DNA of 62,405 nt from a virus (Duplodnaviria > Caudoviricetes): positions 1 to 62,405 of IMG/VR virus record IMGVR_UViG_3300012665_000357, one strand, 5' to 3'. Position 1 is the stretch's first letter, and the number at the start of each line of letters is the position of its first letter. Of the stretch, positions 10,527 through 36,199 are shown one piece after another. The position numbers were made by a program, and so were the translations under genes. The notes under the pieces are model-generated. The model saw nothing but the letters and a program-made list of their open reading frames with translations. It did not search any database and was not told the DNA's origin.

Positions 10527-11197
10527 AAGTTAAACTAGTATCACACTCACAACCAACAGACGAGTTTCGTCAACACAATGTTACAGATGCATTAGATCTT
10601 GTTGCGTATTGTGCTCGAGTAAGCAATCCTGCTAATCAGTTTAATACAGAAACAAGCGAAAAACTAATTAAATATTTGATTAAACATCAACACTGGTCAC
10701 CTCTTGAAATGGTCAGTGCTTGTATTGAAATTGAAACCACACGTGATATTGCTAGACAAATTCTACGTCATCGCAGCTTTAGTTTTCAAGAGTTTAGTCA
10801 ACGCTATGCTGACCCCACAGCAGAACTTGACGAAGCATTTGTATTGCGTGAGGCTAGATGGCAAGATACAAAAAATCGTCAGAATAGTGTAGAAGCAGAT
10901 ATGGATGACGAGGCACAAAAACTAATTGCCATCGAATGGGAACGTGCTCAGAAGCGAGTGTTGTTTTCTGTCAAACAAGAGTATGCGTGGGCTATCAAGA
11001 ACGGTATTGCTAAAGAACAAGCAAGAGCAGTACTGCCTGAAGGTCTTACAATTAGCCGTATGTATATGAATGGTACATTACGTAGTTGGATACACTACAT
11101 TGATCTACGTAAAGAAAACGGTACACAAAAAGAACACATGGAAATTGCGTTAGCGTGTGCTAAAATTATTGCAGAAATTTTTCCGCTAGATCGTTAA
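10523..11197 (+). CDS. thyX: flavin-dependent thymidylate synthase
   Basis: HWSPLE, signature RHRSFSFQEFSQRY, KEQARAVLP, TQKEH. Confidence 0.95.
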   Translation: MKVKLVSHSQPTDEFRQHNVTDALDLVAYCARVSNPANQFNTETSEKLIKYLIKHQHWSPLEMVSACIEIETTRDIARQILRHRSFSFQEFSQRYADPTAELDEAFVLREARWQDTKNRQNSVEADMDDEAQKLIAIEWERAQKRVLFSVKQEYAWAIKNGIAKEQARAVLPEGLTISRMYMNGTLRSWIHYIDLRKENGTQKEHMEIALACAKIIAEIFPLDR

Positions 11198-12363
11198 TTT
11201 TCAAAAGTCGTATCGCCCGGCCACAGAGGTAACTTTGTTCCGGGCGCTCTCTTGGGTATTTTACTATCAGCACTACTTACACAGCTATCGCTGATACAAG
11301 GCTTAGGCCCATCAAACAATTTAAATCCTGTCTCAATATTCCCTAGGGGAGAATCACCGCAACTGTAACTACGTTTAATACTGCCGTCGGGTTCGCGAAT
11401 AATAATTCCTCTATAACCGCTTGAACATTCCCAGTCTTTAAATTTGTTAAAATTAAACGCATTAAAACGTTCTGCTTGATCCATATACCAAATCTTATGT
11501 TCGCTATCTCTAAACTCTACTTGAAAGTGCTGTGGTACTTTACTCTGTGCCTCTTGATATATGGGATCGGGTGTTTTAAAGAACTTAGGTTCGGGTCTTT
11601 TTACCAGTTTGGCGAGTGCGCTTTTTGTCTCGGTAAACGCTCGTTGAGGCATACCGTTGTGTAGTCGCTTTAACATCTCAGGAGTATATCCATCTACTAC
11701 TCGACTGGCAGTAGGATCGCTTTGCGGTTTTAGTGTTACATTGATACCTTGATTGTGAAAGAAAAGTGCATTTTCAAAATCACGATCAAACCATTCAGGA
11801 ACCATAACTTGATTGATGGTTATTTGAACATCGTGTTTCTGACAAAGTATTAACTTGTCAGCAAATTCCTGCATCTTCTCAGGGGTGTCTACATGTTCTG
11901 TGTGCAGACTAGCAGTGATACTAGCACGATGAAACTTGCTTACAGCAGGGCAATACTTTTCTTCAAACCATTTAAGTGAGCGACTCATATTGCTGGTCAT
12001 GTGTACACTGGTATAATTTGTATTGTCTACATCATCATTTAAGTAATTAAGGATATCAATGTAACCAGGATGGAAGGTAGGCTCGCCGCCACTAAGACTA
12101 AAATGGAAACTATTAAAATTGCGTTCTCGGGCTTGTCGTTTGATTTCATCTATTGTACGTAAACACAGTTCTGTTGGTCTGTGGTCCTTGCTATCACTGC
12201 GGGCATAGGGCCAGCAATAGCTGCAACGGTAATTGCAGTAACGACCCAACAGCCAACTGACTGTAAAGAGATCTTTGTATAACATTGTACGTTGTCCTAC
12301 ACGAACAATATCATTGTAAGGTATTTGTGTGAAGTCATACGCTGACCAGCTTAAATCATTCAT
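11194..12363 (-). CDS. radical SAM protein (class C, C-terminal Cys cluster)
   Basis: CNYRCSYC, SGGEP, C-terminal WECSSG...SC...PCISDSC. Confidence 0.92.
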   Translation of the reverse strand: MNDLSWSAYDFTQIPYNDIVRVGQRTMLYKDLFTVSWLLGRYCNYRCSYCWPYARSDSKDHRPTELCLRTIDEIKRQARERNFNSFHFSLSGGEPTFHPGYIDILNYLNDDVDNTNYTSVHMTSNMSRSLKWFEEKYCPAVSKFHRASITASLHTEHVDTPEKMQEFADKLILCQKHDVQITINQVMVPEWFDRDFENALFFHNQGINVTLKPQSDPTASRVVDGYTPEMLKRLHNGMPQRAFTETKSALAKLVKRPEPKFFKTPDPIYQEAQSKVPQHFQVEFRDSEHKIWYMDQAERFNAFNFNKFKDWECSSGYRGIIIREPDGSIKRSYSCGDSPLGNIETGFKLFDGPKPCISDSCVSSADSKIPKRAPGTKLPLWPGDTTFEN

Positions 12364-12910
12364 AAGGTTGTTGTAGTGGATCTATACTAATTTCGTTAAT
12401 ACAGATATCGGCTGGTTGTTCTAATAACCACTTAATATATATCGCTGCTCTATCTATATCCAAACATTTTCTTGTAGGATGTTTTGATTGTACATTACTC
12501 AAACTACCAAAACTAACTAAGGTAATTTTAGGACCTTTATCCCAAACCCCATTCATGCCTAGTGTATTACAGTAGTCTCTTAATGCTTTCTTTTCTGCAT
12601 TGTATAACCAGGCGCCGCCTTTCTTTACACGATCGGTAGTAGACCCAATACAGATAATGTAAGGTCTGTGATTGTTCTCTGTACATTTTTTGTAAACTGC
12701 GTCTAATAACACCGTCTGATTGAATTTCCATAAAGCACTACAGTTAATAAAAACATTATATTCCAATGCTAAATCTGCCAATCTTTTTTGATCATCATTT
12801 GCTGTTAGATCAAAGCCTGTAGTTCGACTAGCAAAAAAAGCATCTGGGTACAGTTTAAATAATTCAGCAGCAAGGCCGTAATTTTTATTTCCTGCTACTA
12901 GTATTTTCAT
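12356..12910 (-). CDS. short-chain dehydrogenase/reductase-like protein
   Basis: N-terminal Rossmann-like KILVAG..YGL, VFINCS, IGS and YNAEK (YxxxK); start revised to ATG 12910. Confidence 0.75.
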   Translation of the reverse strand: MKILVAGNKNYGLAAELFKLYPDAFFASRTTGFDLTANDDQKRLADLALEYNVFINCSALWKFNQTVLLDAVYKKCTENNHRPYIICIGSTTDRVKKGGAWLYNAEKKALRDYCNTLGMNGVWDKGPKITLVSFGSLSNVQSKHPTRKCLDIDRAAIYIKWLLEQPADICINEISIDPLQQPYE

Positions 12911-12935
12911 TATTTGCAAATATAGTAAATTTGAT

Positions 12936-13565
12936 TTAAGGAGACAATGTAAATTTAATTTCTTTAAATTTTAAATCAGTAGTGTTTATCTGCATAAACT
13001 TTGCATTATTTCCGTTCAATTTCACGTAGCCCAAAGCTGCCAATCTTACTACACCATTCTTCAGATTATTTGTTTCAACATCGTTTAGCGGTTCTTGTAA
13101 AGTTCTGTCTTGATTTTTAATATTCCAATTCTTAGTCACGTTCCAATGTGATAGTGTTTTTAAATTCTGATCTATAGGATTTACATCAAATCTCAAAGTA
13201 GGTGTAGTAAATATTGCTGGACAGTTAAGTACATCTTGAATATCGGCTTCTAAGAAACAACCTTCTTCTTTTCCGTCATCGAAACATCTATAATTTTCTG
13301 AAAAGACAAAAATTATTTTAGAGTCTTCAAATCCAAAATTTTCAATTTTATTTGAATTTAAAACTGATAGATTTGAAGAAAGGTTAGATCCCTCTTCAAA
13401 CATTTTATAGAATACTTTCAACCACTCAATAGCTAGTCCATGATTATAGACTCTAAAACCTAAAATAATTTGATCTTTCGATTGATTTTCTAAATGAAAT
13501 TCTAGTTGGTTTCCTAGAGAAATTTCATCATCCCAATCTTTGTAATATCTTGAAGTATCAACCAT
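12936..13565 (-). CDS. hypothetical protein
   Basis: 209-aa ORF coupled within the operon. Confidence 0.7.
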   Translation of the reverse strand: MVDTSRYYKDWDDEISLGNQLEFHLENQSKDQIILGFRVYNHGLAIEWLKVFYKMFEEGSNLSSNLSVLNSNKIENFGFEDSKIIFVFSENYRCFDDGKEEGCFLEADIQDVLNCPAIFTTPTLRFDVNPIDQNLKTLSHWNVTKNWNIKNQDRTLQEPLNDVETNNLKNGVVRLAALGYVKLNGNNAKFMQINTTDLKFKEIKFTLSP

Positions 13566-14229
13566 AAGTACCGAACCCCCATTTTCTTTCTTGGCACCAC
13601 CAGCATTTCATACGTTTACAAGGTGTGTTGTAAACGTAAACATTATCGATTTCGCAACTTCTAGTTAGAGGAAAAATTTTATCAAAAACTCCCTCATTGT
13701 GATAGATGCTGGCAACTCCTTGTTTGTCAATATTAGAAAGAGGATTGTAACTACTTAAACTCCAGGTTGGGTGCGGTTGACCATTTGGTAAAGGATCTCT
13801 TTCTAGGTCTCTGCCAGGAATCATACATTCGGCAACATCAAAGGGAGGATTAGCGGTTACTCCCCAAACATGACAATCTATCATTTCTTCCACGTAAAGC
13901 CTTTTCAAATGTTCTCCTTGGGCAGAACGTATAGTTTTAGTTTCCATGTGAAATACGTAATGTTCTTCATAGAATGTATTTTTATCAATATCCAGTAAGT
14001 TAGCTACAGTATTTTTTATGTCAGTAGCTTTGATATACTGCCACGGTCTTGTTCTAACTATTCCAGTTATTGGAAAAATTTTAATATCTGGTCTTTCAGT
14101 TTTTTTATATTTTGACAAGAGATAAAACAGTAGAGCACTATCAATCCCTCCTGAAATTTTTATTCCAACTTTTTTAAAGTGTTCTGGGATTTCAAAATTA
14201 AAATCCCCCTGATTACATTTCACAAGCAT
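13558..14229 (-). CDS. QueC-like PP-loop ATP pyrophosphatase
   Basis: ISGGIDSA PP-loop; PL..DK..V, TRSC-x11-C-x4-C-x2-C putative Zn site followed by ER. Confidence 0.75.
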   Translation of the reverse strand: MLVKCNQGDFNFEIPEHFKKVGIKISGGIDSALLFYLLSKYKKTERPDIKIFPITGIVRTRPWQYIKATDIKNTVANLLDIDKNTFYEEHYVFHMETKTIRSAQGEHLKRLYVEEMIDCHVWGVTANPPFDVAECMIPGRDLERDPLPNGQPHPTWSLSSYNPLSNIDKQGVASIYHNEGVFDKIFPLTRSCEIDNVYVYNTPCKRMKCWWCQERKWGFGTYG

Positions 14230-14230
14230 G

Positions 14231-15421
14231 TTATATTTTCACCTTATTATGAATAACTCTGTTATTTAATCCGCATTTCTCGGCACACGTAGAAATTCGG
14301 CCATCTTCTATTTTTTTAATTTTCCAACTTTCGATAATGTCTCGAAAGTAACTGCTTTCCATTATATCTTTTATTGATCTACTGTCTGTAACTACAAGAT
14401 TGTCAAATCCTTGAACTTTTTCTACAATTTTTTTATATGATTCGTCAACTTGAATTACTCTTCCAGTTCTGCCACCGAGATAGCAGCAAGGAACTATTTC
14501 GCCCCTAGCAGTGATATAAATTTCATGTTTTTTCCAAACAGAGCATTCTATTGTAGCATTTTCTAATTGTTCTAGTGTGAATTCTTTGGGTTTAAAATCA
14601 CTAGCCGGTTCTAATGTATGTGTAGATTTTTTTGTTTTTAAATCGCTGACATTATATTTGAAATTGGCCGGAATTGTAATAGGTTGTGATTTATCCAAAG
14701 GGGTTGACATAAACAAAACGCCGGGCGGCGGACTAGATTTTCTTACAATTGTTTCTTCTAATTCTAATAACTTTTTTGTATTTTCTATATTTTCAACTGG
14801 CATAGAAATTGTATCGTTATTTTTTACAAATCTATTTGTAAGTTTAAAATTACATTCTTGAAATTCTAGTTCTTTTGCAAGTTTTTTTACTGCATCTTGT
14901 TGATGTTCGTTATGCTTGAATATTAAAAATTGCCATTTTGCGTGTCCACCTGCTTGAATAAAGGCTTTGACATTTTCCATTAACTTGTGCCATTGTACAT
15001 TTCTTCTGTACAAGTGATTGGTATCTTCTAATCCATCTATGCTAAAAGAAACAAATCTTTTATCCGAATTGCAAATTTGTGCCAGCTCTCTCCACCAGCT
15101 TTGCGATCGAACTCCTCCATTGGTACTGATTTCAAAACTAATATTAGGATTGCATTCTACTAGATATTTCAATTGATCTATTAATTCTTTAGCAGTAATG
15201 GGATCACCGACAACTCCGCAGAAGTTGATAAAATGTAATTGTTTGACAAACTCTGGAGGAAAAATTATCTTAAAATACTGTAAATCAATCACACTGTGTG
15301 TTAACTCGGGATTAGGTCTTGATCCTCTACCGCTAAATCTTGCACACATTGGACAAGCAGCATTACAGACTTCACTGACTTCCAGATGTATATGTCGCAC
15401 TTCAGAATAATCAAAAAACAT
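14231..15421 (-). CDS. radical SAM protein with C-terminal SPASM/twitch domain (class B)
   Basis: CNAACPMC, GDP, STNGG, SIDGLEDTNHLYR, C..PCC..CAEKC. Confidence 0.92.
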   Translation of the reverse strand: MFFDYSEVRHIHLEVSEVCNAACPMCARFSGRGSRPNPELTHSVIDLQYFKIIFPPEFVKQLHFINFCGVVGDPITAKELIDQLKYLVECNPNISFEISTNGGVRSQSWWRELAQICNSDKRFVSFSIDGLEDTNHLYRRNVQWHKLMENVKAFIQAGGHAKWQFLIFKHNEHQQDAVKKLAKELEFQECNFKLTNRFVKNNDTISMPVENIENTKKLLELEETIVRKSSPPPGVLFMSTPLDKSQPITIPANFKYNVSDLKTKKSTHTLEPASDFKPKEFTLEQLENATIECSVWKKHEIYITARGEIVPCCYLGGRTGRVIQVDESYKKIVEKVQGFDNLVVTDSRSIKDIMESSYFRDIIESWKIKKIEDGRISTCAEKCGLNNRVIHNKVKI

Positions 15422-15423
15422 AA

Positions 15424-16458
15424 TTAATCCTTAATTAACCAAAAATATTTCATATCTTTAACTTTTTTCACTGATATCTCTGGAGCACAATGACATCTTG
15501 TTATACCACAGATTACTGGCTCAACTGGTAATTCAAAATTTTGATCTTGTATATTTCCCAGTGATCCACCTTGTTGACAGTTACCTCTGTACACTGTTCC
15601 GTCCCACCATATGTGTAAATGATCTATTCCTGCCCAACAGGTCCATCCTAGAAAATTATTTTTTTCTGCACCTGAAATTTCATTTACGTGAACATTTTGT
15701 TTTTGTACTTCATCGTTTTCTTCAAAGAAAATAGTGGTGTTGGACAATTCGTTAGACTTGGCATTTGCTTCAACTGCTTCAAATTTAGAAGAAGTATCGG
15801 GAACAATACTTATACTATCCTTGCCTGGTTGATTTTTGAAAAACCATGTCAATTGTTGCTCGTCATATTCTAATCCGTTTCTATGAAGTGCGCCTTTATC
15901 TCGTATTCTTCTGAGTGTATACTTAATATTATTATTTTTATAAAATTCGATAGCTTCTTTACATGCTTCAAAATATTTAGAATGAAACATTACCTGTACT
16001 ATTAAATTTTTCCCCAACGGTTTATTATCATTTAATTCTTTAACTTTTGGTAAAAAATCAGAATTAGAAGCGTGTTCGAAATGTTGAGAGAATGTGTAAT
16101 TATTAACAAATTCCCATAAATCAAAAAAGTATTTTGTAGTTCTAGTTCCGTTAGTGGTAACAGATATTTTACGAATTCCTAAACCGGATAGATGTTTACA
16201 ATAGTCATAGAAACTGGGATTAACTGTTGGTTCTCCTCCGGTAAATCCTATTTTAATATTAGACGGTTCAAAGTTTTTTAAAAAAACCTTTGACGCATTT
16301 ATGAGACTATCTAAAGAAATGTGGGGACTAGAATTATCATGTATATCCGGTGTACAATAACTGCAATCATAATTGCAACGTTTACCTATAAACCAATCAA
16401 TAGTCAGCTTATTTTTTTCAAAAATTCTATCTATAGCAATTAATTCTTTGTCAACCAT
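15424..16458 (-). CDS. radical SAM protein (class C)
   Basis: CNYDCSYC, TGGEPT, TTNG, WTCWAG..GNC..ICGITRCHC. Confidence 0.92.
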   Translation of the reverse strand: MVDKELIAIDRIFEKNKLTIDWFIGKRCNYDCSYCTPDIHDNSSPHISLDSLINASKVFLKNFEPSNIKIGFTGGEPTVNPSFYDYCKHLSGLGIRKISVTTNGTRTTKYFFDLWEFVNNYTFSQHFEHASNSDFLPKVKELNDNKPLGKNLIVQVMFHSKYFEACKEAIEFYKNNNIKYTLRRIRDKGALHRNGLEYDEQQLTWFFKNQPGKDSISIVPDTSSKFEAVEANAKSNELSNTTIFFEENDEVQKQNVHVNEISGAEKNNFLGWTCWAGIDHLHIWWDGTVYRGNCQQGGSLGNIQDQNFELPVEPVICGITRCHCAPEISVKKVKDMKYFWLIKD

Positions 16459-17510
16459 TGTTCTTCAATCCTTTGATTATTTTTAGTTTCGAATTCTGTC
16501 CCACAGGTAATACCGCAAACAGAAAGTCGATCACTAGTTGTCCAACTTTTCACTAGATTTTCTTCAAACCAAGAGTGAGACATTATTTTTTCGAGAGTGT
16601 GAGTATGAAGATCATTGAAGTCTTCTCCGTACAATTTATAGAGATTTAAAGTTGAACTTTTTTCATTGCCATGCACATGTCCCATCCAGCAACATGGCCA
16701 AACCTTTCCTTGAAAATCTATATATAGCGATTTTTCTTTTTGAGTTTTGCAAGTGATTGCTGTCATTTTAATATAATTTTCAAAACTTCCATATTTCTTA
16801 ATAGCTCGATTTACATTTTCATCATGAATAGTTGCTTTGCGAGATTCTTTTATTATTTGATTTTTTTTATTTACTATAGATCTATCTACCATCATCATAA
16901 CACCAGCTGGTGGTGATTTAAACTCTATTTTTTCCTCTAGTCCAGTCAATACAAATCTACTGCTAACTTTGGTAGTAAATTTTTTAAATTTTAAATCTGT
17001 GGCTAATTTTTTTGCTTGTTCAACTTGATGTTCGTTGTGTTGAAAAATTAGAAAAGCCCACTCGGCTTGGCCTCCAGCATTTATAAAAGTTTTAACATTA
17101 GAAATGAGTTTATTCCAATTTACACCTACTCTATAAATATGATTTGTATCTTCAAGACCGTCAATTCCAAAAACAACACGAATTTTTCTTTCCCCCAATT
17201 GTCTCCAAAAGTCTGTGTCTCTTGCACCACCATTTGTATGCAAAGAAACATTGGGACATCCGTTGTCTACAAACCAGTCAACAAAATCTGCACAATGAGG
17301 GTGTGCAATAGGATCTCCGTAATTTCCACAACTGTACATATACTGCACGTTTTTAATAAGGTCTGGAGTAAACCATTCTTTAAAAGAATCCATACTTATC
17401 ATTTCTAAGGGTAGCGATGCGTTACCTGTTCTAGCACATTGCGGACAACGAGCATTGCAATAGCTGGTCCATTCGATATGCAACCGTTCGATTTTATCTA
17501 GATATTTCAT
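16440..17510 (-). CDS. radical SAM protein with C-terminal SPASM/twitch domain (class B)
   Basis: CNARCPQC, GNYGDP, HTNGG, IDGLEDTNHIYR, WPCCW, CGITCG. Confidence 0.92.
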   Translation of the reverse strand: MKYLDKIERLHIEWTSYCNARCPQCARTGNASLPLEMISMDSFKEWFTPDLIKNVQYMYSCGNYGDPIAHPHCADFVDWFVDNGCPNVSLHTNGGARDTDFWRQLGERKIRVVFGIDGLEDTNHIYRVGVNWNKLISNVKTFINAGGQAEWAFLIFQHNEHQVEQAKKLATDLKFKKFTTKVSSRFVLTGLEEKIEFKSPPAGVMMMVDRSIVNKKNQIIKESRKATIHDENVNRAIKKYGSFENYIKMTAITCKTQKEKSLYIDFQGKVWPCCWMGHVHGNEKSSTLNLYKLYGEDFNDLHTHTLEKIMSHSWFEENLVKSWTTSDRLSVCGITCGTEFETKNNQRIEEQWLTKN

Positions 17511-18736
17511 TTGTCAAATAATATTTTGTAAGATTCAGGGAAAGATGCTTCATAACTATTGTTTCTTCTTTGATCTAATTTAGATATTTGATCACGTAAA
17601 TTTAGTATAGTCTTTCTTTCTATTCCGTGAATATTTTGACAGCGTTGTCTTTCTATATCTCTATTAAGGTATCCCACAGCTTCTTTACAACAAACATGAT
17701 TCTGTATCGTGCTTGGTAGATTGTTGTAATAATCATTAATCTTATCTTTCATATGTTGAGGTAAATTATAAGCTGCAAAATAAGTTGGATCAAATAGAAA
17801 GTTTAAAGCTACAGTTCCGTAGGGTTCTAAACATTCAAGTATAGCAGGAACTTCCATGATATTTAAACTAGAAACTGTGATTAAAAATCTCATATCAAAA
17901 ACAAATTCTTGTTGCATTTTTAATTCTCTATATCTGTCCATATTTTTTAAGAAATTATTCCACTTACCTGGATATCGCATATATTCAAACTTGTCTCCTA
18001 TACCATCGATTGAAAATGTAATTTCAACCTGTTTAAAATGTTTCCAATAATTTATAAGATCTTGTTTATAGACAGTTCCGTTTGAATTATGAAAGAGATG
18101 AATATGTTTTGAGTAATTGTTCTTGACAAGATAATCTATATATCTATGATATAAATCATTTAACAACGGTTCGCCTCCAGACCAATCTATTCTACGTAGG
18201 TCTGGAGCCATTTTATGTAAGTCTTCTTCGATGATATCAGAAGTGTTGAAAGAAAACTTTTTCTGGTCTATTATAGGAATGTTTTCAAATTTATTCCATT
18301 CTTTTTCAATTTGATTGCTATTTCCAGGCCAACAATGTACACAGGCTAGATTACAAAGATTAGCAACACATAATTCAAGATGTCTTATTTTAGGATTTAA
18401 AATATTTTCTTCATTTATAAAATTTCGATATATGATGTTTTTATGGTTTCTAAGGCTAGTAATTCCTTTCGCTTCTTGTTTCCAACATGTGTCGCACGAT
18501 GAGATTTTTTTATTATCTAAAAAATCTTTCCTAATATCATTATAAAACTCGTCTGAGCTAGAATTAAAAATATCAGTAAACGTCTTTTCGTTAATATTTG
18601 AAGAGGTTGAATTTTGGTATTGATTATAATTAAAGTGACAACAGGGTGTTATTTGACCACTCCACTTGTTATTCACACTTAGAAAAGGCATAATACAAAA
18701 AGTATCCATGTCAATATTTTTACCGTTTATTTCCAT
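17507..18736 (-). CDS. radical SAM protein with N-terminal twitch-like domain (class A)
   Basis: FCIMPF..PCC..SCDTCW, then CNLACVHC, SGGEPL, FSIDG..EYMRYP. Confidence 0.92.
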   Translation of the reverse strand: MEINGKNIDMDTFCIMPFLSVNNKWSGQITPCCHFNYNQYQNSTSSNINEKTFTDIFNSSSDEFYNDIRKDFLDNKKISSCDTCWKQEAKGITSLRNHKNIIYRNFINEENILNPKIRHLELCVANLCNLACVHCWPGNSNQIEKEWNKFENIPIIDQKKFSFNTSDIIEEDLHKMAPDLRRIDWSGGEPLLNDLYHRYIDYLVKNNYSKHIHLFHNSNGTVYKQDLINYWKHFKQVEITFSIDGIGDKFEYMRYPGKWNNFLKNMDRYRELKMQQEFVFDMRFLITVSSLNIMEVPAILECLEPYGTVALNFLFDPTYFAAYNLPQHMKDKINDYYNNLPSTIQNHVCCKEAVGYLNRDIERQRCQNIHGIERKTILNLRDQISKLDQRRNNSYEASFPESYKILFDK

Positions 18737-18738
18737 AA

Positions 18739-21454: not shown

Positions 21455-21463
21455 TATATTATT

Positions 21464-22636
21464 CTATTTAAATTGTTCGCTAAATGCATCATATTTAGTG
21501 CCACATGTTTTAGCGCAGACTGCTAGTTTGCCATCAGCACAACTAGATTTCCCCCAACTATTGGGAATAACTTCTTGCATAAATTTTCCGTTAACAATGC
21601 TTTCTAAATTTAATTTAGTAGCATTAAGATTGTCTTTGCCAACTTGCTCTATTAAGTTCCATATTTGTCCACCTTTAGGAGTCCAATACCAAACATACAT
21701 TTGTCCAGCTGTCCAACAACAAGGTTGCACAATACCTTCTGCACTGATGTACAAACTTTTTTCTTCTGCAACTTTACACTTAATAGGAACTTCGTCCCAA
21801 TATTTTTCCATCGGTTTTTTCTTTGCAGTATCTGTGTGGAAGATCTGCGGGAATGTATAACCTTCTAAATCTTCTTGGCGGCTAGGAAGGAATTTAATAG
21901 GAACTTCTGATTTGGCAATTTTGCTAAGTTCTTCTAAAGCAGCATTTCGATATTTAGGATTAGTGGGTGCTTGTAATAATGTGGTTGCTATTCCTTTGCG
22001 ATTAGCAGCCTGATGCATTTCTTTAGTAACACCGCTAGCATTGCTAAAGAATCTAGCAGATTTTTTAAATTGAAATTTCTCAAATCCCATAGATTTTGAC
22101 AATGCTTCCGCGGCATCTACTTGATGTTCATTGTGAGCAAATACAATATAGTCCCATCTTGCTCTGCCGCCGGCGGCAATAAACGCAGATGCATTTTCCA
22201 TAATTTTAGACCAAACGGTATTTTGTCTATATAGATGATTAGTGTCTTCTAGTCCATCAATACTAAATGTAACATAACCTCTAGGACCTAATACTTGTGC
22301 AAGTGTTTTCCACCACTCAGGTTTCTTGGCAGAGCCGTTTGTCATCATGCTGAGATTCATTTTAGGATTGTGTTCTCTAAAATAAGCAAAGGCTTCTAAA
22401 GTATCTCTAGCAGCAATTGGATCTCCATAGTTGCCGCACATGTACATGCGATCTAATTGTGCTATAAAGTTAGACTTGAATATTTTCTTAATATCATCTA
22501 TAAAAAGCTCAGTACCCGGAACTTGCGGATTTTCTTGGCCGCCATTAATGTTACGAGCGCACATAGGACAGGCTGCATTACAGTTATCTGTAATTTCTAA
22601 GTGTACTGTCTTAATTTCATTATATGTGTATAACAT
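21464..22636 (-). CDS. radical SAM protein with C-terminal SPASM/twitch domain (class B)
   Basis: CNAACPMC, GNYGDP, SIDGLEDTNHLYR, QPCCW, CAKTCG. Confidence 0.92.
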   Translation of the reverse strand: MLYTYNEIKTVHLEITDNCNAACPMCARNINGGQENPQVPGTELFIDDIKKIFKSNFIAQLDRMYMCGNYGDPIAARDTLEAFAYFREHNPKMNLSMMTNGSAKKPEWWKTLAQVLGPRGYVTFSIDGLEDTNHLYRQNTVWSKIMENASAFIAAGGRARWDYIVFAHNEHQVDAAEALSKSMGFEKFQFKKSARFFSNASGVTKEMHQAANRKGIATTLLQAPTNPKYRNAALEELSKIAKSEVPIKFLPSRQEDLEGYTFPQIFHTDTAKKKPMEKYWDEVPIKCKVAEEKSLYISAEGIVQPCCWTAGQMYVWYWTPKGGQIWNLIEQVGKDNLNATKLNLESIVNGKFMQEVIPNSWGKSSCADGKLAVCAKTCGTKYDAFSEQFK

Positions 22637-22854
22637 TATTCTATTACTAATTTTATATCTTTGGCAGGGCCTACTCGACTAGGAAGGTCTCCGTATTTTT
22701 CTACATAATCTTTGATCACGGCCTTATACCAATTTTGACTATTATGATATGCCTGTACATTATACTTATAGATATTATTATTAGTAGCTTCCATTACCGT
22801 TAATGCTCTAGCTGCTTCTTTTTGCAGATCTCTTAGTTCTAAATCATCTATCAT
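22636..22854 (-). CDS. small hypothetical protein (72 aa)
   Basis: Coupled by ATGA and TAATG overlaps inside the rSAM operon. Confidence 0.8.
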   Translation of the reverse strand: MIDDLELRDLQKEAARALTVMEATNNNIYKYNVQAYHNSQNWYKAVIKDYVEKYGDLPSRVGPAKDIKLVIE

Positions 22855-23681
22855 GGTCTACCTATAAGCATAACACGCTTATAACCTTTTAATTGCAGCT
22901 CACCTTCATATAATACTTCTTTCATCGGAAACTTTTTCTTCATATGACTAACGCTGTGTACACAGTTAACATGACCATCACCATCAAACATATTATTACT
23001 TTGGATAGCAACAATAGGATTAGATTCTAATTGTTTAAATCTAATTTGATGAAACCATTCTTCTGACATGTGCTCGGCACTAGTATTGATGATTAAATTT
23101 GGAGTAAATTTTTCTGTAAATTTACTACTCTCTTTAAAGTTTTCAATTTCCCACTCATATCCATTTTGATGTAATGTTAAATTGTTAATATCTGCACAAA
23201 CTGCTTTTACTTTGTAATTATCAATGTCATTTATATTAAAAATATAGTCGCTAGCATTACAGGCGTCTTTATCTAATTCAACGTTTCGTAACTTACAATA
23301 TGTTAATCTTTTTTCGTAAATAGATTTTAATTGTCCATACCACCCAGCAAGAAAAACTATGTTATCGTAATGGTCGTTAATTCTTGCTAGTTCTTCAATT
23401 AACCATACTTTACTTTTAATTTGACTTCTGCTAAATGCATCATAGATGTGGGGGTTGTTTACCTTCTTTGTGTAATTAAAAATACTTCTAAAAATTTTAT
23501 CTTTGTTGTCTTGTTCATTTAAATGTTTGATACAATATTCAAGAATTGCAGTTTGTATGTCGTTGCTATCGAGAATTTTAACAAATTCTCTAAGAAACCT
23601 TGCTTGTTCTTCATTATCTTTAAATTTTAAATATTCTTCTAAACCAAAGAGTACTTCTCGTACACCGGAAGATTCTTTCAT
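22851..23681 (-). CDS. class I SAM-dependent methyltransferase-like protein
   Basis: Motif I-like IVFLAGWYG, acidic NVELD, ADIN, IINTSAEH; start revised to 23681 (ATGA overlap). Confidence 0.7.
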   Translation of the reverse strand: MKESSGVREVLFGLEEYLKFKDNEEQARFLREFVKILDSNDIQTAILEYCIKHLNEQDNKDKIFRSIFNYTKKVNNPHIYDAFSRSQIKSKVWLIEELARINDHYDNIVFLAGWYGQLKSIYEKRLTYCKLRNVELDKDACNASDYIFNINDIDNYKVKAVCADINNLTLHQNGYEWEIENFKESSKFTEKFTPNLIINTSAEHMSEEWFHQIRFKQLESNPIVAIQSNNMFDGDGHVNCVHSVSHMKKKFPMKEVLYEGELQLKGYKRVMLIGRP

Positions 23682-24358
23682 AGTTGTTCCTTGAATTTGC
23701 TGTCTAACCATTCAAAGTCATTGATTAACTTTAATGCTTCTAAATTTCGTTTATTTTTAATGCCATACTTAGAACCTGCAATGGCCCCTTTAATAGCATA
23801 TTCTCCGTAGGGTTTATCTGCCCCCAATTGACACCATGCTTGTAGTCTTTTCGAAGTCTCGTCTGTTACTTGTCTATCAATAATTCGACTACTCAATTTA
23901 ACGCACTCTCTAAATGCGCTTTTCCAAGTATTAAACGGATCAGTATTAAACGTGTTAATATTGCTTACTTGATCAAGTGCTTTAAATTTTTTACTAATAC
24001 TAGTAGTCATATCTGTATTACTAGTATCCATATTAATAGTCATTTTTCTTGGGAATAGTTTTACGCCGCCGTTGCCGTATTCTAATCCGTTAACAGGATT
24101 ACAACTCCTCCATACATGCACTACGTCTAAATCCCAACTAGACACAATATGATCAAATTTGAATGTATCAACAACTTCAGCATCTCCGTCAACTATCCAA
24201 AACATCTTTGTCATGCATTGTTCTGCTGCTTTTATATGAGCCTGATGGATTCCCTTTACGCCATGCACACGTTTAGCTAATGGAAATCTGTCTGTTAATT
24301 TACGCCAGTTTTCGTCTGCATTTATTTCTTGATAACTTATAAAAACAATATCATACAT
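23678..24358 (-). CDS. GT-A-fold glycosyltransferase-like protein, paralog of 25568..26497
   Basis: DIVFISY.E, KRVHGV.G...AH, DxD in WIVDGD, YGNGGVK, W...FRE.VK. Confidence 0.7.
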   Translation of the reverse strand: MYDIVFISYQEINADENWRKLTDRFPLAKRVHGVKGIHQAHIKAAEQCMTKMFWIVDGDAEVVDTFKFDHIVSSWDLDVVHVWRSCNPVNGLEYGNGGVKLFPRKMTINMDTSNTDMTTSISKKFKALDQVSNINTFNTDPFNTWKSAFRECVKLSSRIIDRQVTDETSKRLQAWCQLGADKPYGEYAIKGAIAGSKYGIKNKRNLEALKLINDFEWLDSKFKEQL

Positions 24359-25571
24359 TTTTTAAAACATCCTGTAGTTCTGGAATAACAGTGTAGGTAT
24401 TTTCATTTCTTAGTTCGTCTAATTTAGCCGTTAAATCTATAAATCTCTTTTTAGCTTCGCTATCATGTGGCAAAGAAAGCTGCTGTATTATATAAGAAAA
24501 ACTATCACTTAGATCAACTGCATACAATGTTTTCATTTCTTCAATAAACGCTAAAAGATCTTTTGCAATTTTTTCTTTAAACAAGTCACTTAGTATAGAC
24601 ACATGATAATGTTTAGGGTATTCTAATAAATTTATAAAAAAGTTTTTATAGTTGTGTTCTTTAGTAATAATACCAATACTAATCAAACGTTGAATAATAT
24701 CAGGCAATCTAAAAACATTCATTGCACCCACTGTTATACCCGGAGCCATATAAACACCTAGCTCTTTAACAGTTAGTAAATTTTCTTCTACTTGTTCCCA
24801 TACTGTGCCTTTGCGTATTAATTCTGCACGATCACCTATCTCATCAATACTAGGCCAAATTTCAACTTTGTCTTTAGCCCATTTTTTCCAATAGTCTAGT
24901 ACATTCTTACCTTTATGTTCTAAAGTAGACATGTTAGTATTATATTGAATTCTAACATTAAATCTCTCATGCTTGTAAAGAAGATCTAATATCGTATAAT
25001 GTTCATCCATTAATAAAGGTTCGCCGCCAGCAAAATAAATTTTTTCAACTTCGTGTATATGAGACAATAAAAAATCTAATTTGTTTTGTCCTTGTACCGA
25101 ATTAATGGTTAATATTTTATCTTGATCGTTATCGCCGTACAGTTTTTTATTATCTGGCAACCAGGCAGAACTGTACTTGGGACCGCAACTTCTACATCTA
25201 AAATTACAAATATTACTAAATCTAAAATCCCAGTATTTTAATTCTAATTTATCACAATGGCCATCTTCTTTTGTAATATCTTTTATTTCAGTTAACTTAG
25301 ACGGAAAATATCTATTTTGATGGATCCTATTACTAATACCAGTTGCAGCTTCTTTATTAAAACATTTAGAACACGGCTTAGGTTGCACACCTTGCATCAT
25401 TTCTCTGCGAAGGCGTTTCATATTTTCACTGTTCCAAATATCTTCTATTGAATCCGTATTAAGATCGCCTGCCCAATATTCGTGTGCAGAAATCATGCAG
25501 CAGGGATTAACTTTGCCGTCAGGATCAAAGTTAAGATGCAACCAAGGAATTACACAAAGTGTGTTACTCAT
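24351..25571 (-). CDS. radical SAM protein with N-terminal twitch-like domain (class A)
   Basis: LCVIPW..PCC..PCSKCF, then CNFRCRSC, AGGEPL. Confidence 0.92.
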   Translation of the reverse strand: MSNTLCVIPWLHLNFDPDGKVNPCCMISAHEYWAGDLNTDSIEDIWNSENMKRLRREMMQGVQPKPCSKCFNKEAATGISNRIHQNRYFPSKLTEIKDITKEDGHCDKLELKYWDFRFSNICNFRCRSCGPKYSSAWLPDNKKLYGDNDQDKILTINSVQGQNKLDFLLSHIHEVEKIYFAGGEPLLMDEHYTILDLLYKHERFNVRIQYNTNMSTLEHKGKNVLDYWKKWAKDKVEIWPSIDEIGDRAELIRKGTVWEQVEENLLTVKELGVYMAPGITVGAMNVFRLPDIIQRLISIGIITKEHNYKNFFINLLEYPKHYHVSILSDLFKEKIAKDLLAFIEEMKTLYAVDLSDSFSYIIQQLSLPHDSEAKKRFIDLTAKLDELRNENTYTVIPELQDVLKNV

Positions 25572-26497
25572 TCTGGGTCAATTATTCCTTGAGGTGTTCT
25601 TACTGGGTTTTTATACACTTCTTTAAAAAATTTACTCTGTTCTGCAGATAATACCTGTGCTACAGGTAACCCTAGATCATTGCCTAACATAGATCCTAAC
25701 TCTGTACACTTTTCTAAAATGTTATCATTATTGACGGTTGGCTCAACAGTCGTTTTCCATAAGTTGTTTAGATACGTAAAGTCTCGAACATTAACATAAT
25801 CCCAATCAGTAAGATTAGTCATCTGACATCCAAGTCTTGCACCATACATTGCCCATAATCCGTTATCAACATCTGCGCCGATACTCATCCAAATTAACAG
25901 TCTATGATAATTTTTCCAATGTAGATCAGTTGACAGTTTGCTAACGTCGGGTAGTTTAACTCCGCGATCTAAACTCATCTTTACACCTTCGCGGAATCCT
26001 GCCCTCCAGGCTTGCCACGGAGTAGCATTATTATAAACATCACTATAACAGCCGTTCATTTGAATGTAGTTAATATCCCAACAAAAATCAACCTGGCTAT
26101 GTGGATTAGTAGGATCGGCATTTTCGTGAGTTTTCATATCTAAAACAAACTGTGTCGGCCAACATTTGATTCCGCCGTTACCATATAATAAACCATTGAT
26201 AACATTGTGTCCACACCAAGAAATCACCGAACCTGAAAGGTCTTGCAGTTCTTCAAACTTAAGGACTTGATTTACAAAGTCAGGTCTTACAATGTTATCA
26301 CCGTCAATTGTAATAAATCTTTCTGTATCTGCAAGACGAGCACAGGCTTTATGTGCAGCATCACTACCTTCAACACCGTGTACACGTTTGGCCCAAGGTA
26401 CCTTAGTTAATAGGTCAGCATAATTTTTTTCAGCATTTGGCTCGTCATAGCTGAGGTAAACAATATCATAATCAATAATATTAATAGCTTTAGACAT
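25568..26497 (-). CDS. GT-A-fold glycosyltransferase-like protein
   Basis: DIVYLSYDE, KRVHGVEG..AH, DxD in TIDGD, YGNGGIK, AWRAGFREGVK. Confidence 0.7.
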   Translation of the reverse strand: MSKAINIIDYDIVYLSYDEPNAEKNYADLLTKVPWAKRVHGVEGSDAAHKACARLADTERFITIDGDNIVRPDFVNQVLKFEELQDLSGSVISWCGHNVINGLLYGNGGIKCWPTQFVLDMKTHENADPTNPHSQVDFCWDINYIQMNGCYSDVYNNATPWQAWRAGFREGVKMSLDRGVKLPDVSKLSTDLHWKNYHRLLIWMSIGADVDNGLWAMYGARLGCQMTNLTDWDYVNVRDFTYLNNLWKTTVEPTVNNDNILEKCTELGSMLGNDLGLPVAQVLSAEQSKFFKEVYKNPVRTPQGIIDPE

Positions 26498-27095
26498 TTA
26501 ATAGTTTCCCATAAGAATTAAAAGTTTTAAGAGTAGTAATGTCAACACAATCTAAATCATTTTCATATTGAGAAGAAAACAATGTCGAGTATCCTGTAAC
26601 AAGTTGATCTAGTGTACATTCTATTGTGTTTAATAAAAAATTAGGGTTATCTTTTAACGAGACATAAAATTTTATAGATTGATGTAAGTTATCAGTGTCA
26701 ATTTTATCTTTACCAGTATCCGTTAGTACAAACTTCCAAAGAGTATGTTTAACATCTTGTAAAATTAATAAATCAACACTATGTGTAGATTCTATTGTTG
26801 GGATAAAGAACAGCCCTTTGGCAACTGTTATATGTTTATGCTTTTCAATAAATGTAGCAGTAGTTAACCCCGGGTTTTTTATTTTAAAAGAAGAAACGTT
26901 TTTCTTACCTGAAATAAAATCTTCAACTAATTTTCCATTTACTTCTATAAAAGAATAGTTAGTATTTTTTTCTCTAACAATAGATACAATAGAACCGTCT
27001 GTTTCGTAATGAATATAAAACTTAGTCGATAGATTAGAAACTGCTGCAGCCTTATCTAATTCTTCTTGACTTAAATATTCTATCTCTTCAGACAT
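26490..27095 (-). CDS. hypothetical protein
   Basis: 201-aa ORF with 8-nt overlaps on both sides. Confidence 0.8.
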   Translation of the reverse strand: MSEEIEYLSQEELDKAAAVSNLSTKFYIHYETDGSIVSIVREKNTNYSFIEVNGKLVEDFISGKKNVSSFKIKNPGLTTATFIEKHKHITVAKGLFFIPTIESTHSVDLLILQDVKHTLWKFVLTDTGKDKIDTDNLHQSIKFYVSLKDNPNFLLNTIECTLDQLVTGYSTLFSSQYENDLDCVDITTLKTFNSYGKLLNV

Positions 27096-27924
27096 TTGCT
27101 TGTTCCAATTTAGTTATAATGTCGTCTGTTAAAAACTCATCTTCAGTATAGTGGAAAACTCCAGTTTGTAAACAATTAGAAATTGTTAACTGTAAATTAC
27201 TATTAAAGGTTATAGTAGTATTATTAGTCCATTTATCTGGCACATGACTCCATTTTTGTAATGCTGGTTTCATATGTGTAAAACTAGGCGACAATGCGTC
27301 TACTGTACATTCTGATTCAGAATCTAATATCTTAACTGCAATAGCAGAAGATACATCCATACTACAAAATCCTTGATTTTTAACAGGTGCATACTTATTA
27401 TAACATAATTTCCAATTTTTAACAACCAGTTCTAACCATTTATAAAATTCAAATGCTTTTTTAGTTTTTTTAAAATAGTGTAACCCAAAATAAATGTTAG
27501 GTAGCTCGTTAGATGTAAACATTTTTCTATAATGATCGTCTGTTATAGTATTTCCACGATAATCAATAACTGAACTAGTAAACATTAAGTCAGTTTTTTC
27601 TAAAAAATCCCACCAATGATCATTAGACGTTAGTACTAACATATCGGTATCATAGACAATGTTGTGTTTAAAGGGAGTAACATAAATTAACTTCCATCGA
27701 TTTTCAATTTTCCATACACTATCTTTGGCAGAATCATTCCACGGAATCTTAACTATGTGATCAAATGCATTGTTGTACTCGAACGGCACTTCATCGTTAG
27801 TAACTATGCAAGTTTGATTATGTTGATTGTTAGCTTTAATAGATAAAGCAAGTGCATAGGCTTGACGAACATAATTAATATCTCCGTTTTGAGCTAAAAA
27901 TAGATGGCCCCTGTCTAATGTCAT
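27088..27924 (-). CDS. glycosyltransferase-like protein (GT-A, GT8/mannosyltransferase-like)
   Basis: G.L..AQN...YV..A..LA.SIK, TPF..IVYDTDML (DxD), FTHMK, FHY. Confidence 0.72.
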   Translation of the reverse strand: MTLDRGHLFLAQNGDINYVRQAYALALSIKANNQHNQTCIVTNDEVPFEYNNAFDHIVKIPWNDSAKDSVWKIENRWKLIYVTPFKHNIVYDTDMLVLTSNDHWWDFLEKTDLMFTSSVIDYRGNTITDDHYRKMFTSNELPNIYFGLHYFKKTKKAFEFYKWLELVVKNWKLCYNKYAPVKNQGFCSMDVSSAIAVKILDSESECTVDALSPSFTHMKPALQKWSHVPDKWTNNTTITFNSNLQLTISNCLQTGVFHYTEDEFLTDDIITKLEQANV

Positions 27925-28754
27925 AGCACCCTCATTATACTTTGTTTATTCATAATGTGTACATCTATGTTATCTGTTTTTAACAATGTATATTCCCCTA
28001 ATGCATTTTGTTTTTCTATTAAAAATGTGCAGGCATTGTTTTGATGTTTAAACAATAGGTCTCGGTCAAGTGTAAAATACATGTTTCCGGGAACAGTTCC
28101 TATAAACTTTTCACAAGAGTATCCATTTAAAATATGTATAGCAATACTAAAAGCAAAATCATTTCGATACGTAGGTGTATCAATGTCATAAAGAACTCTA
28201 TAATAGTTCCAATTATTTTTTACAAATGCAATTAATTCAAAAAATAATTTTGAATAAGTTGTTTTTTTAAAATAAAAAACTGTTGCCCAATAGAATGGGA
28301 TAGAAGTGTTACTGATATAAGTAAATTCAGACGACTTTCTCCAACCTGATAAGTCTACTGCTTCTTTAAATAACGCAATTTCTTGATCTAATTTAAAAAG
28401 ATTCAATAAGTAGTCGCTGTTTAAAATATAGTCAACATCAATAACTAGTGTTTCGTCGTAAGGAGTTAACTCATACACATTAGATCTTGTAGAATTTTTC
28501 CAAGGAACTAATTCATAGTGTAACGACCCGTCATAAAATCTTTTTTTCTGTGTAGTATTGTCTAAACTTGAAATTATGTTGTCAAATAGTGCAACATCGT
28601 CTGGGTAAGTTTTATTAAGCCAGTCCGAACTATCAGTAACCAATGTTACTGGTAAGTTTAAATGCTCTTTAATTAGTTTTGTTGATTTGATTGCTAAACC
28701 AACGTAGTCAACAAGTGCATTATTATACGCAAATAATACTACACCTTTAGTCAT
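27921..28754 (-). CDS. glycosyltransferase-like protein, paralog of 27088..27924
   Basis: GVVLFAYNN..DY..LA, LPVTLVTD, TPYDETLVIDVD (DxD), RNDFAFSIA, HIMNK. Confidence 0.72.
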   Translation of the reverse strand: MTKGVVLFAYNNALVDYVGLAIKSTKLIKEHLNLPVTLVTDSSDWLNKTYPDDVALFDNIISSLDNTTQKKRFYDGSLHYELVPWKNSTRSNVYELTPYDETLVIDVDYILNSDYLLNLFKLDQEIALFKEAVDLSGWRKSSEFTYISNTSIPFYWATVFYFKKTTYSKLFFELIAFVKNNWNYYRVLYDIDTPTYRNDFAFSIAIHILNGYSCEKFIGTVPGNMYFTLDRDLLFKHQNNACTFLIEKQNALGEYTLLKTDNIDVHIMNKQSIMRVL

Positions 28755-29101
28755 AGATCAAGAATACTTGCGATATTTCTACTTTTCTTAACAGCTTCAT
28801 ACTTGGTGTAGTACGTGTTAGCTGCCTGAGTGTATAGATCAAGAAGATTTTCTAAAAAAGTCTTCAAGTTGTCTATGTTAATGGGCAAATTGTTGTCATC
28901 AACTATGACAACATTCTCAATATACTCCATAGTAACTAGTGACTGCACAAACGAAACAGTTTCTCTAGTAACTTTAAATGTACCACCATTATAAAAATAG
29001 AACAAGTTTTGTTCGTATTCTTCTTTCAATGCACGTTTTTGATTAGCTAACGTTGTCATTAGGTTAGCAGTTTCAAGGGCTTTTTCTAAAATTGGATCCA
29101 A
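28751..29101 (-). CDS. hypothetical protein, first gene of the rSAM/GT operon
   Basis: TTG start with AAGGAG SD (29107-29112); weak resemblance to tail-fibre-associated small proteins. Confidence 0.75.
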   Translation of the reverse strand: MDPILEKALETANLMTTLANQKRALKEEYEQNLFYFYNGGTFKVTRETVSFVQSLVTMEYIENVVIVDDNNLPINIDNLKTFLENLLDLYTQAANTYYTKYEAVKKSRNIASILDL

Positions 29102-29106
29102 GACGA

Positions 29107-29138
29107 CTCCTTAACTACAATTATGTATTGTAGTTATC
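29107..29138 (-). promoter_or_regulatory. putative late promoter (GATAACTA) plus 10-bp hairpin abutting the SD
   Basis: Minus strand reads GATAACTACAAT-ACATA-ATTGTAGTTA-AGGAG; arms at 29112-29121 and 29127-29136. Confidence 0.55.
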
Positions 29139-29157
29139 TTTTTAAAAAAAGAAGAAG

Positions 29158-31622: not shown

Positions 31623-31630
31623 TATTTATC
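31623..31630 (-). promoter_or_regulatory. putative late promoter GATAAATA
   Basis: Plus-strand TATTTATC about 20 nt upstream of the 31602 start. Confidence 0.6.
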
Positions 31631-36191: not shown

Positions 36192-36199
36192 TATTTATC
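36192..36199 (-). promoter_or_regulatory. putative late promoter GATAAATA
   Basis: Plus-strand TATTTATC 20 nt upstream of 36172; overlaps an imperfect inverted repeat at 36196-36217. Confidence 0.6.

Follow-up and report, generated by a model that had tools for sequence, protein, structure and literature searches.

What does a phage do with nine radical S-adenosylmethionine (SAM) enzymes encoded in one operon, directly behind its tail-fibre genes? The question is raised by IMG/VR record IMGVR_UViG_3300012665_000357, a 62,405-nt fragment of an uncultured jumbo phage (hereafter, the window), in which 20 co-oriented open reading frames (ORFs), g1 to g20, run along the minus strand from position 29101 to 11194. 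An initial annotation of this island, made from the letters alone, proposed a pathway that attaches a glycan to virion proteins and tailors it by radical chemistry. The answer that we tentatively favour, at a probability we would place a little short of even, is that four putative glycosyltransferases of the GT-A type add sugars to a fibre-associated protein, and that radical, redox, methyl and amide edits follow. Sugar-transferase folds, the linkage of the island to fibre genes in related phages and the glycan context of one bacterial cluster all speak for the virion decoration that was proposed. The pathway is not, however, intrinsically a virion one, because its core also occurs in chromosomes of Bdellovibrionota, where there is no virion.

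The tight packing of the 20 genes described initially is evident from the ORF coordinates: neighbouring genes share 1-35 nt or lie 1-16 nt apart, with no gap wider than 16 nt, and 56 nt indeed separate g1 from the preceding gene, here denoted up1. In none of the 20 proteins does the mean Kyte-Doolittle hydropathy of any 19-residue window reach 1.6; all of them therefore look soluble. A terminator scan returned 10 sites against 9.5 expected, such that no internal terminator is apparent. Comparison of the whole island with 50,697 GenBank phage records by megablast produced zero matches, and no family in Pfam, NCBIfam or PHROGs was matched by g1-g5, g7-g9 or g17-g19. What can be observed directly is the gene content, folds, synteny, turnover of gene cassettes and bacterial counterparts.

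The CxxxCxxC motif is present in nine proteins (g6, g10-g16 and g20), and eight of these pass the Pfam Radical_SAM model (PF04055), in full agreement with the initial count; the exception, g14, falls short of the 29.5-bit cut-off at 22.1 bits and is 32-34% identical to g10 and g16. The nine enzymes form three classes, the mutual similarity of which is undetectable or marginal. The first class comprises g6, g11, g12 and g13, members of NCBIfam family NF033640 (N_Twi_rSAM, twitch domain-containing radical SAM protein) with an N-terminal auxiliary Cys domain. These proteins score 371.6, 367.2, 425.4 and 288.4 bits, respectively, across model positions 1-398 (curated cut-off, 170 bits) and display the pattern C-x17-CC-x41-62-CxxC ahead of CxxxCxxC; the other five enzymes score 31-58 bits and are not members. 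The second class (g10, g14 and g16) carries a C-terminal SPASM-like Cys cluster, and the third consists of g15 and g20. The SPASM model (PF13186; cut-off 21.5 bits) is passed by g6 (51.4 bits), g13 (29.4), g12 (23.9) and g16 (23.8), is not reached by g14 (19.2) or g10 (16.7), and has no match in g11, g15 or g20; in total, SPASM/twitch auxiliary-cluster domains were found in seven of the nine enzymes. Because identity within classes is only 23-34% (25-32% among the NF033640 paralogues g6, g11, g12 and g13), the paralogues are old rather than products of recent duplication. Sequence searches of the PDB yielded only the NifB radical SAM core for g10 and no match for g12 or g20.

For the four proteins with DxD motifs that were initially labelled glycosyltransferase-like, the evidence differs from one to another. 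Comparison of the AlphaFold (AF2) model of g7 (pLDDT 89.7) with the PDB using Foldseek gave 42 matches at E <=0.001, and all the matches listed, which include WrtF, RmlT, PBCV-1 A64R, ArnC, SunS, TarS/TarP and HddC, have the GT-A fold; all of these are glycosyltransferases save one sugar nucleotidyltransferase (HddC), in support of a role in sugar transfer. A PDB sequence search with g7 gave nothing useful. In g7, D57 and D59 of the DGD motif are invariant, and its family, which is unnamed and has no Pfam domain, includes 4448 relatives, most of them 57-77% identical. The DGD motif is common to g7 and g5, which are 35% identical across 254 residues, and the GT-A fold of g5 is supported via this paralogy. 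The Pfam model PF00535 matches neither g5 nor g7 of the window; a fused g5-g7 homologue in a metagenome-assembled genome of Bdellovibrionales passes it (29.8 bits, cut-off 23.3). In the alignment of g2 and g3, D92 and D94 are invariant, and the joint profile matches the GT8 enzyme glycogenin (E 0.0015-0.03) in a stretch limited to the 90 N-terminal residues. A Pfam search of g2 and g3, in which PF01501 was sought, gave no match at E <=0.01; the closest named Atlas clusters are nucleotide-diphospho-sugar transferase and GT8, which we treat as a lead only. The four assignments are supported by a structural model (g7), paralogy (g5) and a profile match to glycogenin (g2 and g3), and not by family models.

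The encoded proteins, among them baseplate wedge, hub, gp25-like and gp47 proteins, a gp55-like late sigma factor, a 4522-aa ORF and three fibre-type proteins, indicate that the phage is a Rak2-like jumbo myovirus: its wedge protein shares 33-36% identity with the wedge proteins of Rak2-like jumbo phages (Atu_ph07, SCTP-2 and RaK2 among them), and its relatives in IMG/VR reach 382-400 kb. A search with g12 identified 58 viral loci in IMG/VR, each spanning about 10 kb on either side of g12, so that the absence of a gene from a locus can reflect truncation. The gene order in these relatives is constant: fibre genes, one or two copies of up1, g1-g5, g7-g10, a variable array of radical SAM and PP-loop genes, g19 and g20, followed by a convergent replication-side module. 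The number of radical SAM genes per fragment ranges from 2 to 12 (median, 8). The closest loci match the window DNA at 67-88% over g2-g3, g5, g7-g10, g12, g19-g20 and thyX; over g6, g11 and g13-g18, no DNA match was found in the six closest loci, and about 8.5 kb of the island therefore represent strain-specific cassettes. The island thus consists of conserved ends and a swappable middle. Four of the five large relatives carry the island on the strand of the wedge gene, at a distance of 29-46 kb downstream; no wedge match was detected in the remaining one, which is a fragment (56% complete). Most of the 58 viral loci end too near the island for a hidden Markov model (HMM) of the fibre N-terminal domain to inform. 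The synteny with structural genes that the initial annotation called for is found in the constant gene order, in the wedge linkage and in a cultured phage described below.

The accessory genes of related viral islands, represented by 93 ORFs, include only a few of sugar-nucleotide type: two cytidylyltransferases, one UDP-glucose/GDP-mannose dehydrogenase, one mannose-6-phosphate-isomerase-type protein and one asparagine-synthase-type amidotransferase. Also present are two FkbM methyltransferases, two nitroreductases and seven more radical SAM genes. Another accessory gene encodes a PNP_UDP_1 phosphorylase-family protein (E 5e-22); if this were of the MTA/SAH-nucleosidase type, it could, at a guess, clear 5'-deoxyadenosine, an inhibitory by-product of radical SAM enzymes.

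An up1-like gene lies directly 5' of g1 in 18 of the 21 loci that carry g1 (10 of 13 viral loci, Ralstonia phage RsoM2USA and 7 of 7 genome-contig loci), including a Bdellovibrionales contig on which the pair is flanked by pheST, rimM and trmD. This adjacency, which persists in a bacterial chromosome, is the best evidence that g1-g5 work on or with an adhesin-type protein. The AF2 model of up1 (pLDDT 88.8, pTM 0.87) consists of three helices and a beta-sandwich; a structure search matched nothing in the PDB (best E 0.019) and three viral proteins, all of them uncharacterised, and a PDB sequence search gave nothing useful. The up1 domain also occurs fused within proteins of 634-1975 aa, some of which have further precomputed Pfam accessions that we take to be Ig-like, fn3, TIG and phage fibre adhesin domains. 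We consider up1 the best candidate for the acceptor, as an adhesin-type substrate or partner of the module. In three related phages, up1 is present as two tandem diverged copies (L016:647-2544, L023:136-1923 and L046:543-2462).

Among the 50,697 phage records, RsoM2USA (MG752970) is the sole one that matches g3, g7 or up1. Its ORF354 to ORF347 correspond to g1, g2, g3, a gene with no match at the g4 position, g5, g6, g7 and g8, in this order, with 22-47% identity and with all products annotated as hypothetical. This module is located downstream of wedge, giant-protein and fibre genes and is directly preceded by ORF355, in which a fibre N-terminal domain is joined to a full up1 domain. The locus has no g9, g10, g19, g20 or long radical SAM array, and a further NF033640-like gene is found elsewhere in the genome. 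Three genes upstream of ORF355, the paper on this phage places a GDP-mannose 4,6-dehydratase (ORF358; PMC8504454). Because RsoM2USA is cultured and carries the g1-g8 module, the acceptor and the first steps are open to direct testing. The related jumbo phage XacN1 is reported to have at least two virion glycoproteins (PMC5852040).

The late-promoter-like motif that was initially noted at the operon head is not supported. The T4-type late promoter TATAAATA occurs twice in the window, against 11 expected; both matches are on the plus strand, within the operon, and were rejected as its promoter. The exact motif GATAAATA occurs three times, against 5.6 expected; those at 31623 and 36192 precede fibre-module genes, the former the fibre gene at 30073-31602, and GATAAATA may be a late-promoter core for the gp55-like sigma factor (59163-59987). 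The copy of GATAAATA before g1 is inexact, and forms with one mismatch number 76 in the window, compared with 131 by chance; it was rejected because such forms are rarer than chance, which leaves the operon head with no supported promoter of its own. In line with the initial remark that no sigma-70 promoter was seen at the head, nothing sigma-70-like is present in the 56-nt gap, and a 10/12 match falls within the upstream gene. It appears plausible that the island is transcribed by read-through from the fibre genes. The 71-nt stretch that includes the gap (29095-29165) folds at -14.3 kcal/mol (z -2.74), with 1 of 200 shuffles as good. Its AT-rich double hairpin partly covers the g1 Shine-Dalgarno sequence and may govern how much enzyme is made relative to fibre.

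Among the remaining operon genes (Table 1), the predicted short-chain dehydrogenase/reductase (SDR) is supported: in g19, the catalytic residues S93, Y106 and K110 are invariant along with G10, and G15 nearly so, and its profile matches 26 PDB chains, nearly all of them SDRs (best E 8.4e-6), with no match in Pfam. In the predicted PP-loop ATPase, g17, SGGxDS is invariant in 24 sequences, as are C192, C204, C209 and C212, but profile matches (LarE, NAD synthetase, TtuA and asparagine synthetase) are weak (E 0.06-0.5) and confined to the motif region, and no Pfam or NCBIfam family is matched. The predicted methyltransferase, g8, is a lead only: it lies near one Atlas cluster (score 0.96) in which Methyltransf_31 is found on 21% of members, and has no match among Pfam, NCBIfam or PDB profiles. 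As initially counted, four genes lack an assignment (g1, g4, g9 and g18). Of these, g1 has no Pfam, NCBIfam or PHROG match over the cut-off and was found in 13 viral loci, in 7 of 31 loci from genome contigs (see below) and in RsoM2USA; homologues of g4 share 24-39% identity; and g18 has zero relatives in the 58 viral and 31 genome-contig loci. The small protein g9 is conserved evenly, with a mean column identity of 76% and 25 invariant columns; its PDB matches, engineered repeat proteins and antibody chains only, were taken as spurious, and it is unmatched in the chromosomal Bdellovibrionota loci L066, L069, L070, L072, L074, L075, L092, L093 and L095. Because it is so evenly conserved and the bacterial cores hold no match to it, g9 was rejected as the precursor of a ribosomally synthesized and post-translationally modified peptide (RiPP).

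Table 1. Features of the island and its surroundings in the window; the fourth column gives the number of the 58 viral loci in which a homologue was found.
Feature	Position	Strand	Viral loci (of 58)	Description
g20/thyX border	11194-11197	g20 (-), thyX (+)		convergent; stop codons overlap by 4 nt
g20	11194-12363	-	39	core radical SAM, third class; Radical_SAM 48.7 bits
g19	12356-12919	-	23	187-aa SDR-like, unusually short; at conserved 3' end
g13-g18	12936-18736	-		strain-specific middle, from family matches and g17 motif: g13 NF033640, g14 and g16 C-terminal SPASM, g15 g20-class, g17 putative PP-loop, g18 unassigned
g12	18739-20169	-		NF033640 radical SAM, core gene
g11	20135-21454	-		NF033640 radical SAM, cassette
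g10	21464-22636	-	56	core radical SAM, C-terminal SPASM-like cluster; Radical_SAM 40.2 bits
g9	22636-22854	-	40	72 aa, no Cys; between g8 and g10
g8	22851-23711	-	50	286 aa, core gene, possibly class I methyltransferase-like
g7	23678-24358	-	45	226 aa, GT2-like GT-A, core gene
g6	24351-25571	-		NF033640 radical SAM, strain-specific cassette
g5	25568-26497	-	20	309 aa, GT2-like GT-A, paralogue of g7
g4	26490-27095	-	11	201 aa, poorly conserved, no family match
g3	27088-27924	-	13-15 (range for g1-g3)	GT8-like nucleotide-diphospho-sugar transferase, invariant DxD; distant paralogue of g2
g2	27921-28754	-	13-15 (range for g1-g3)	GT8-like nucleotide-diphospho-sugar transferase, invariant DxD; distant paralogue of g3
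g1	28751-29101	-	13-15 (range for g1-g3)	116 aa, TTG start; always accompanies up1/g2/g3
gap	29102-29157	-		56 nt; AT-rich hairpin; Shine-Dalgarno AAGGAG ahead of g1 TTG start
up1	29158-30063	-		301 aa, 27% Ser+Thr, no Cys
tail-fibre-type genes	30073-31602, 31632-33440, 33441-35561	-		PHROG tail fibre/tail protein matches
exact GATAAATA	5914-5921 (+), 31623-31630 (-), 36192-36199 (-)			short intergenic stretches just 5' of genes

The three fibre-type proteins upstream of up1 have an N-terminal domain in common, with 30-43% identity among them. Between these genes and the baseplate wedge gene lies the single 4522-aa ORF (36235-49803, minus strand), the place of which is taken in RsoM2USA by a 2541-aa structural protein found in virions. 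At the other end, the g20 and thyX modules converge with no spacer, as their stop codons overlap, and a terminator-like hairpin on the minus strand (11186-11171) lies just within thyX. Outside the island, at 2277-3700 on the plus strand, a QueE-like radical SAM gene (phrog_2076, E 2.7e-50), the tenth radical SAM gene of the window, overlaps a gene for a 2-oxoglutarate (2OG)-Fe(II) oxygenase; this pair may be part of a nucleotide pathway, for example that of 7-deazaguanine.

A profile search with g7 identified 31 loci in bacterial and archaeal genome records; many of these are probably mis-binned phages, and several are chromosomal. Homologues in Bdellovibrionota are 44-49% (g10), 56-60% (g12) and 56-64% (g20) identical to their phage counterparts. 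In a closed 2.2-Mb Bdellovibrionales chromosome, homologues of g10, g20, g7 and g12 (44-56% identical), with a gene of the metallo-beta-lactamase (MBL) fold between g20 and g7, are located between secY/adk and fatty-acid genes. The Bdellovibrionales contig mentioned above carries up1, g1, g2, g3, an unmatched gene, g5, two g6-like genes and g15, as well as g20, a fused g5-g7 and g12, in a block that adjoins pheST, rimM, trmD and rnhB. In a closed 2.9-Mb Bacteriovoracaceae chromosome, g8, g5 and g7 are followed by four GT2 genes, two of which are strong matches (E 1e-25 and 9e-33), an FAD oxidoreductase and a PMT_2-type GT-C; the cluster continues with two g11-like genes, g12, g20, g10, g19, two g10-like genes, g14, g15 and a further NF033640 gene.

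Family NF033640 is strongly expanded in five Bdellovibrionota genomes (G001-G005), each of which has many copies over the cut-off, compared with none in 14 control genomes; some copies in G001 (L066) and G002-G005 (L069, L070, L072 and L074) form tandem arrays of four. In two closed Bdellovibrionota chromosomes, we surveyed the genes immediately next to six other NF033640 loci, 27 in total. Genes for a DNA methylase, for peptidases and for an aminotransferase are among them, as is mreB, and the survey led us to reject the notion that all Bdellovibrionota copies reside in glycan loci. In a closed Bacteriovoracaceae chromosome (L098:8064-11702, minus strand), an MNIO/DUF692 gene (PF05114, confirmed) and an NF033640 gene two genes downstream of it are separated by a 265-aa ORF, and this locus may be a peptide-modifying operon that uses an NF033640 enzyme. 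A DUF2063 match was tallied among the NF033640 neighbours, not mapped to a gene.

Taken together, these observations can be accommodated in a modular scheme, in which we infer what sugar serves as substrate, what accepts it, when the genes are expressed and each of the reactions. Under this scheme, the soluble GT-A-type proteins g2, g3, g5 and g7 would transfer sugars from nucleotide-sugar donors to a cytoplasmic acceptor, with up1 as the best candidate or, alternatively, the fibres. The fixed trio g10, g12 and g20, one enzyme per radical SAM class, would then abstract hydrogen atoms from these sugars and so epimerise, oxidise, dehydrate or alkylate them, with g19 (as an SDR), g8 (as a methyltransferase-like protein) and g9 (as a small subunit) acting at the side of the trio. 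The cassettes (g6, g11, g13-g16 and the PP-loop protein g17) would contribute strain-specific edits, and these edits would vary the surface chemistry of the host-recognition apparatus.

Several results weigh against this scheme. Neither Pfam nor NCBIfam nor PHROG yields a glycosyltransferase match for g2, g3, g5 or g7, and the structural matches of g7 are of moderate strength (E about 1e-4, TM 0.32-0.41). Searches of the PDB with g10, g12 and g20 identified no close characterised relative of the radical SAM enzymes. SPASM/twitch enzymes act more often on peptides. The 93 accessory ORFs matched just 23 Pfam families, and among their products are two Asp/Asn beta-hydroxylases, which act on proteins. 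Scans for TATAAATA and GATAAATA found no late promoter at the operon head. On the bacterial side, no further glycosyltransferase was found in the scanned flanking ORFs of the 2.2-Mb Bdellovibrionales core; NF033640 members elsewhere reside in non-glycan neighbourhoods, with no glycosyltransferase or sugar-nucleotide family among the best 25 of 36 matched neighbour families; and MNIO and DUF2063 would together make a RiPP-type pair. Finally, XacN1 has no homologue of g3, g7 or up1, and the virion proteomics of RsoM2USA, which covers only the most abundant gel bands, does not list ORF355 (PMC8504454).

Of the alternatives, remodelling of the host envelope fares best, although we regard it as unlikely. 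The enzymes would alter O-antigen or capsule precursors at the inner membrane face and thereby prevent superinfection or promote release. Solubility or a peripheral location is common among O-antigen transferases, and the membrane GT-C (PMT_2) of the Bacteriovoracaceae cluster implies an exported product in bacteria. The phage operon, by contrast, encodes no membrane protein, be it a flippase, a GT-C or an acyltransferase, and hosts as dissimilar as Ralstonia and aquatic bacteria would need a lipid-linked acceptor in common. Furthermore, the operon is the distal part of a fibre operon, with the up1-g1-g2-g3 adjacency seen in 18 of 21 loci. This is the interpretation in print for pelagimyophage host-recognition clusters with GT8 genes and radical SAM cassettes, for which the published account favours O-chain modification (PMC7029224).

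A further possibility, which we consider decidedly improbable, is that the radical chemistry (crosslinking, epimerisation or oxidation) is directed at side chains of a fibre-associated or other protein or peptide, in the manner of RiPP enzymes or anSME, the sugars being added afterwards or belonging to a separate process. The auxiliary-cluster domains in seven of nine enzymes, the accessory Asp/Asn beta-hydroxylases and the NF033640 paralogue downstream of MNIO, with DUF2063 tallied in the same neighbour set, would all fit such chemistry, but the MNIO adjacency is known from one genome. The run from g7 to g10 (transferase, methyltransferase-like protein, small protein and radical SAM/SPASM enzyme) resembles mycofactocin clusters as well; yet g9, the only small ORF, has no Cys, is evenly conserved and is unmatched in bacterial cores that keep g10, g12 and g20. 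Moreover, no Cys-rich or leader/core-type peptide was found among ORFs of 60 aa or more, and Pfam and NCBIfam scans detected no peptidase, RiPP recognition element (RRE) or transporter.

A product other than a decorated protein, whether hypermodified DNA or a diffusible compound (small molecule or cofactor) synthesised in the course of infection, is very improbable: the soluble transferases, the QueC-like layout of g17 (SGGxDS with a C-terminal Cys cluster), the QueE-like/2OG-Fe oxygenase pair on the other strand of the window and minimal bacterial clusters with no evident acceptor gene are compatible with it, but Pfam and NCBIfam scans found no nucleotide-metabolism, DNA-binding or transglycosylase gene in the island, the convergent thyX is part of a different, conserved module, no exporter or resistance gene is present, and the position of the island and its up1 linkage point to the fibre module.

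If the product indeed decorates the fibre apparatus, the host range of a widespread group of jumbo phages from aquatic habitats would be set by enzyme cassettes in addition to fibre sequence, and the same logic would reach predatory bacteria. Extending this, one could envisage that jumbo phages and predatory Bdellovibrionota share a radical SAM glycan-editing toolkit, with a core of one GT-A transferase and one enzyme per radical SAM class plus swappable cassettes, that diversifies the chemistry rather than the sequence of adhesins for prey recognition; we find this broader idea rather unlikely as it stands. Were it true, NF033640 enzymes would act on protein-linked sugars by a new class of radical reaction. 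Nine radical SAM enzymes in one phage operon represent an unusually heavy commitment to oxygen-sensitive chemistry.

How does the island compare with known systems? Four of its enzymes (g6, g11, g12 and g13) are full-length members of NF033640, a family with no known reaction, for which our literature search found no descriptive paper; a search for this family, or for radical SAM enzymes and glycosyltransferases in jumbo phages, likewise found nothing on the present system. The four paralogues occur here together with two other radical SAM classes. BtrN and its relatives are twitch/SPASM radical SAM enzymes that tailor sugars and cyclitols in aminoglycoside pathways, and the island resembles these pathways in combining a radical SAM core and an auxiliary-cluster domain with transferases and dehydrogenases; however, g12 and g20 have no significant sequence match to a solved radical SAM enzyme, that of g10 is confined to the NifB core, and the auxiliary domain of NF033640 is N-terminal. 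Virion glycosylation by phage-encoded transferases is known in some mycobacteriophages. The chlorovirus PBCV-1 offers a second case, in that its soluble GT-A protein A64R (PDB 2p6w, 2p72 and 2p73) is among the structural matches of g7, and a role in virion protein glycosylation is stated in PMC5852040. Both systems have transferases only, and neither is known to include radical SAM tailoring enzymes.

A further parallel is in the host-recognition cluster of pelagimyophages and cyanomyophages, where the combination of radical SAM cassettes and GT8 genes was noted in 2020 (Zaragoza-Solas et al. 2020, PMC7029224). The cluster is likewise a hypervariable island in the structural region and contains, besides fibre genes and GT8-type transferases, radical SAM cassettes that turn over between close relatives; it lies between vrlC and gp14 in T4-like phages of ~150 kb and was read as modifying the host O-chain. 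The likeness is one of content and turnover: the present island differs in its Rak2-like jumbo backbone, its fixed ends and a defined core that it has in common with bacteria. What it adds to PMC7029224 and PMC5852040 is this defined core, its presence in predatory bacteria and its linkage to up1.

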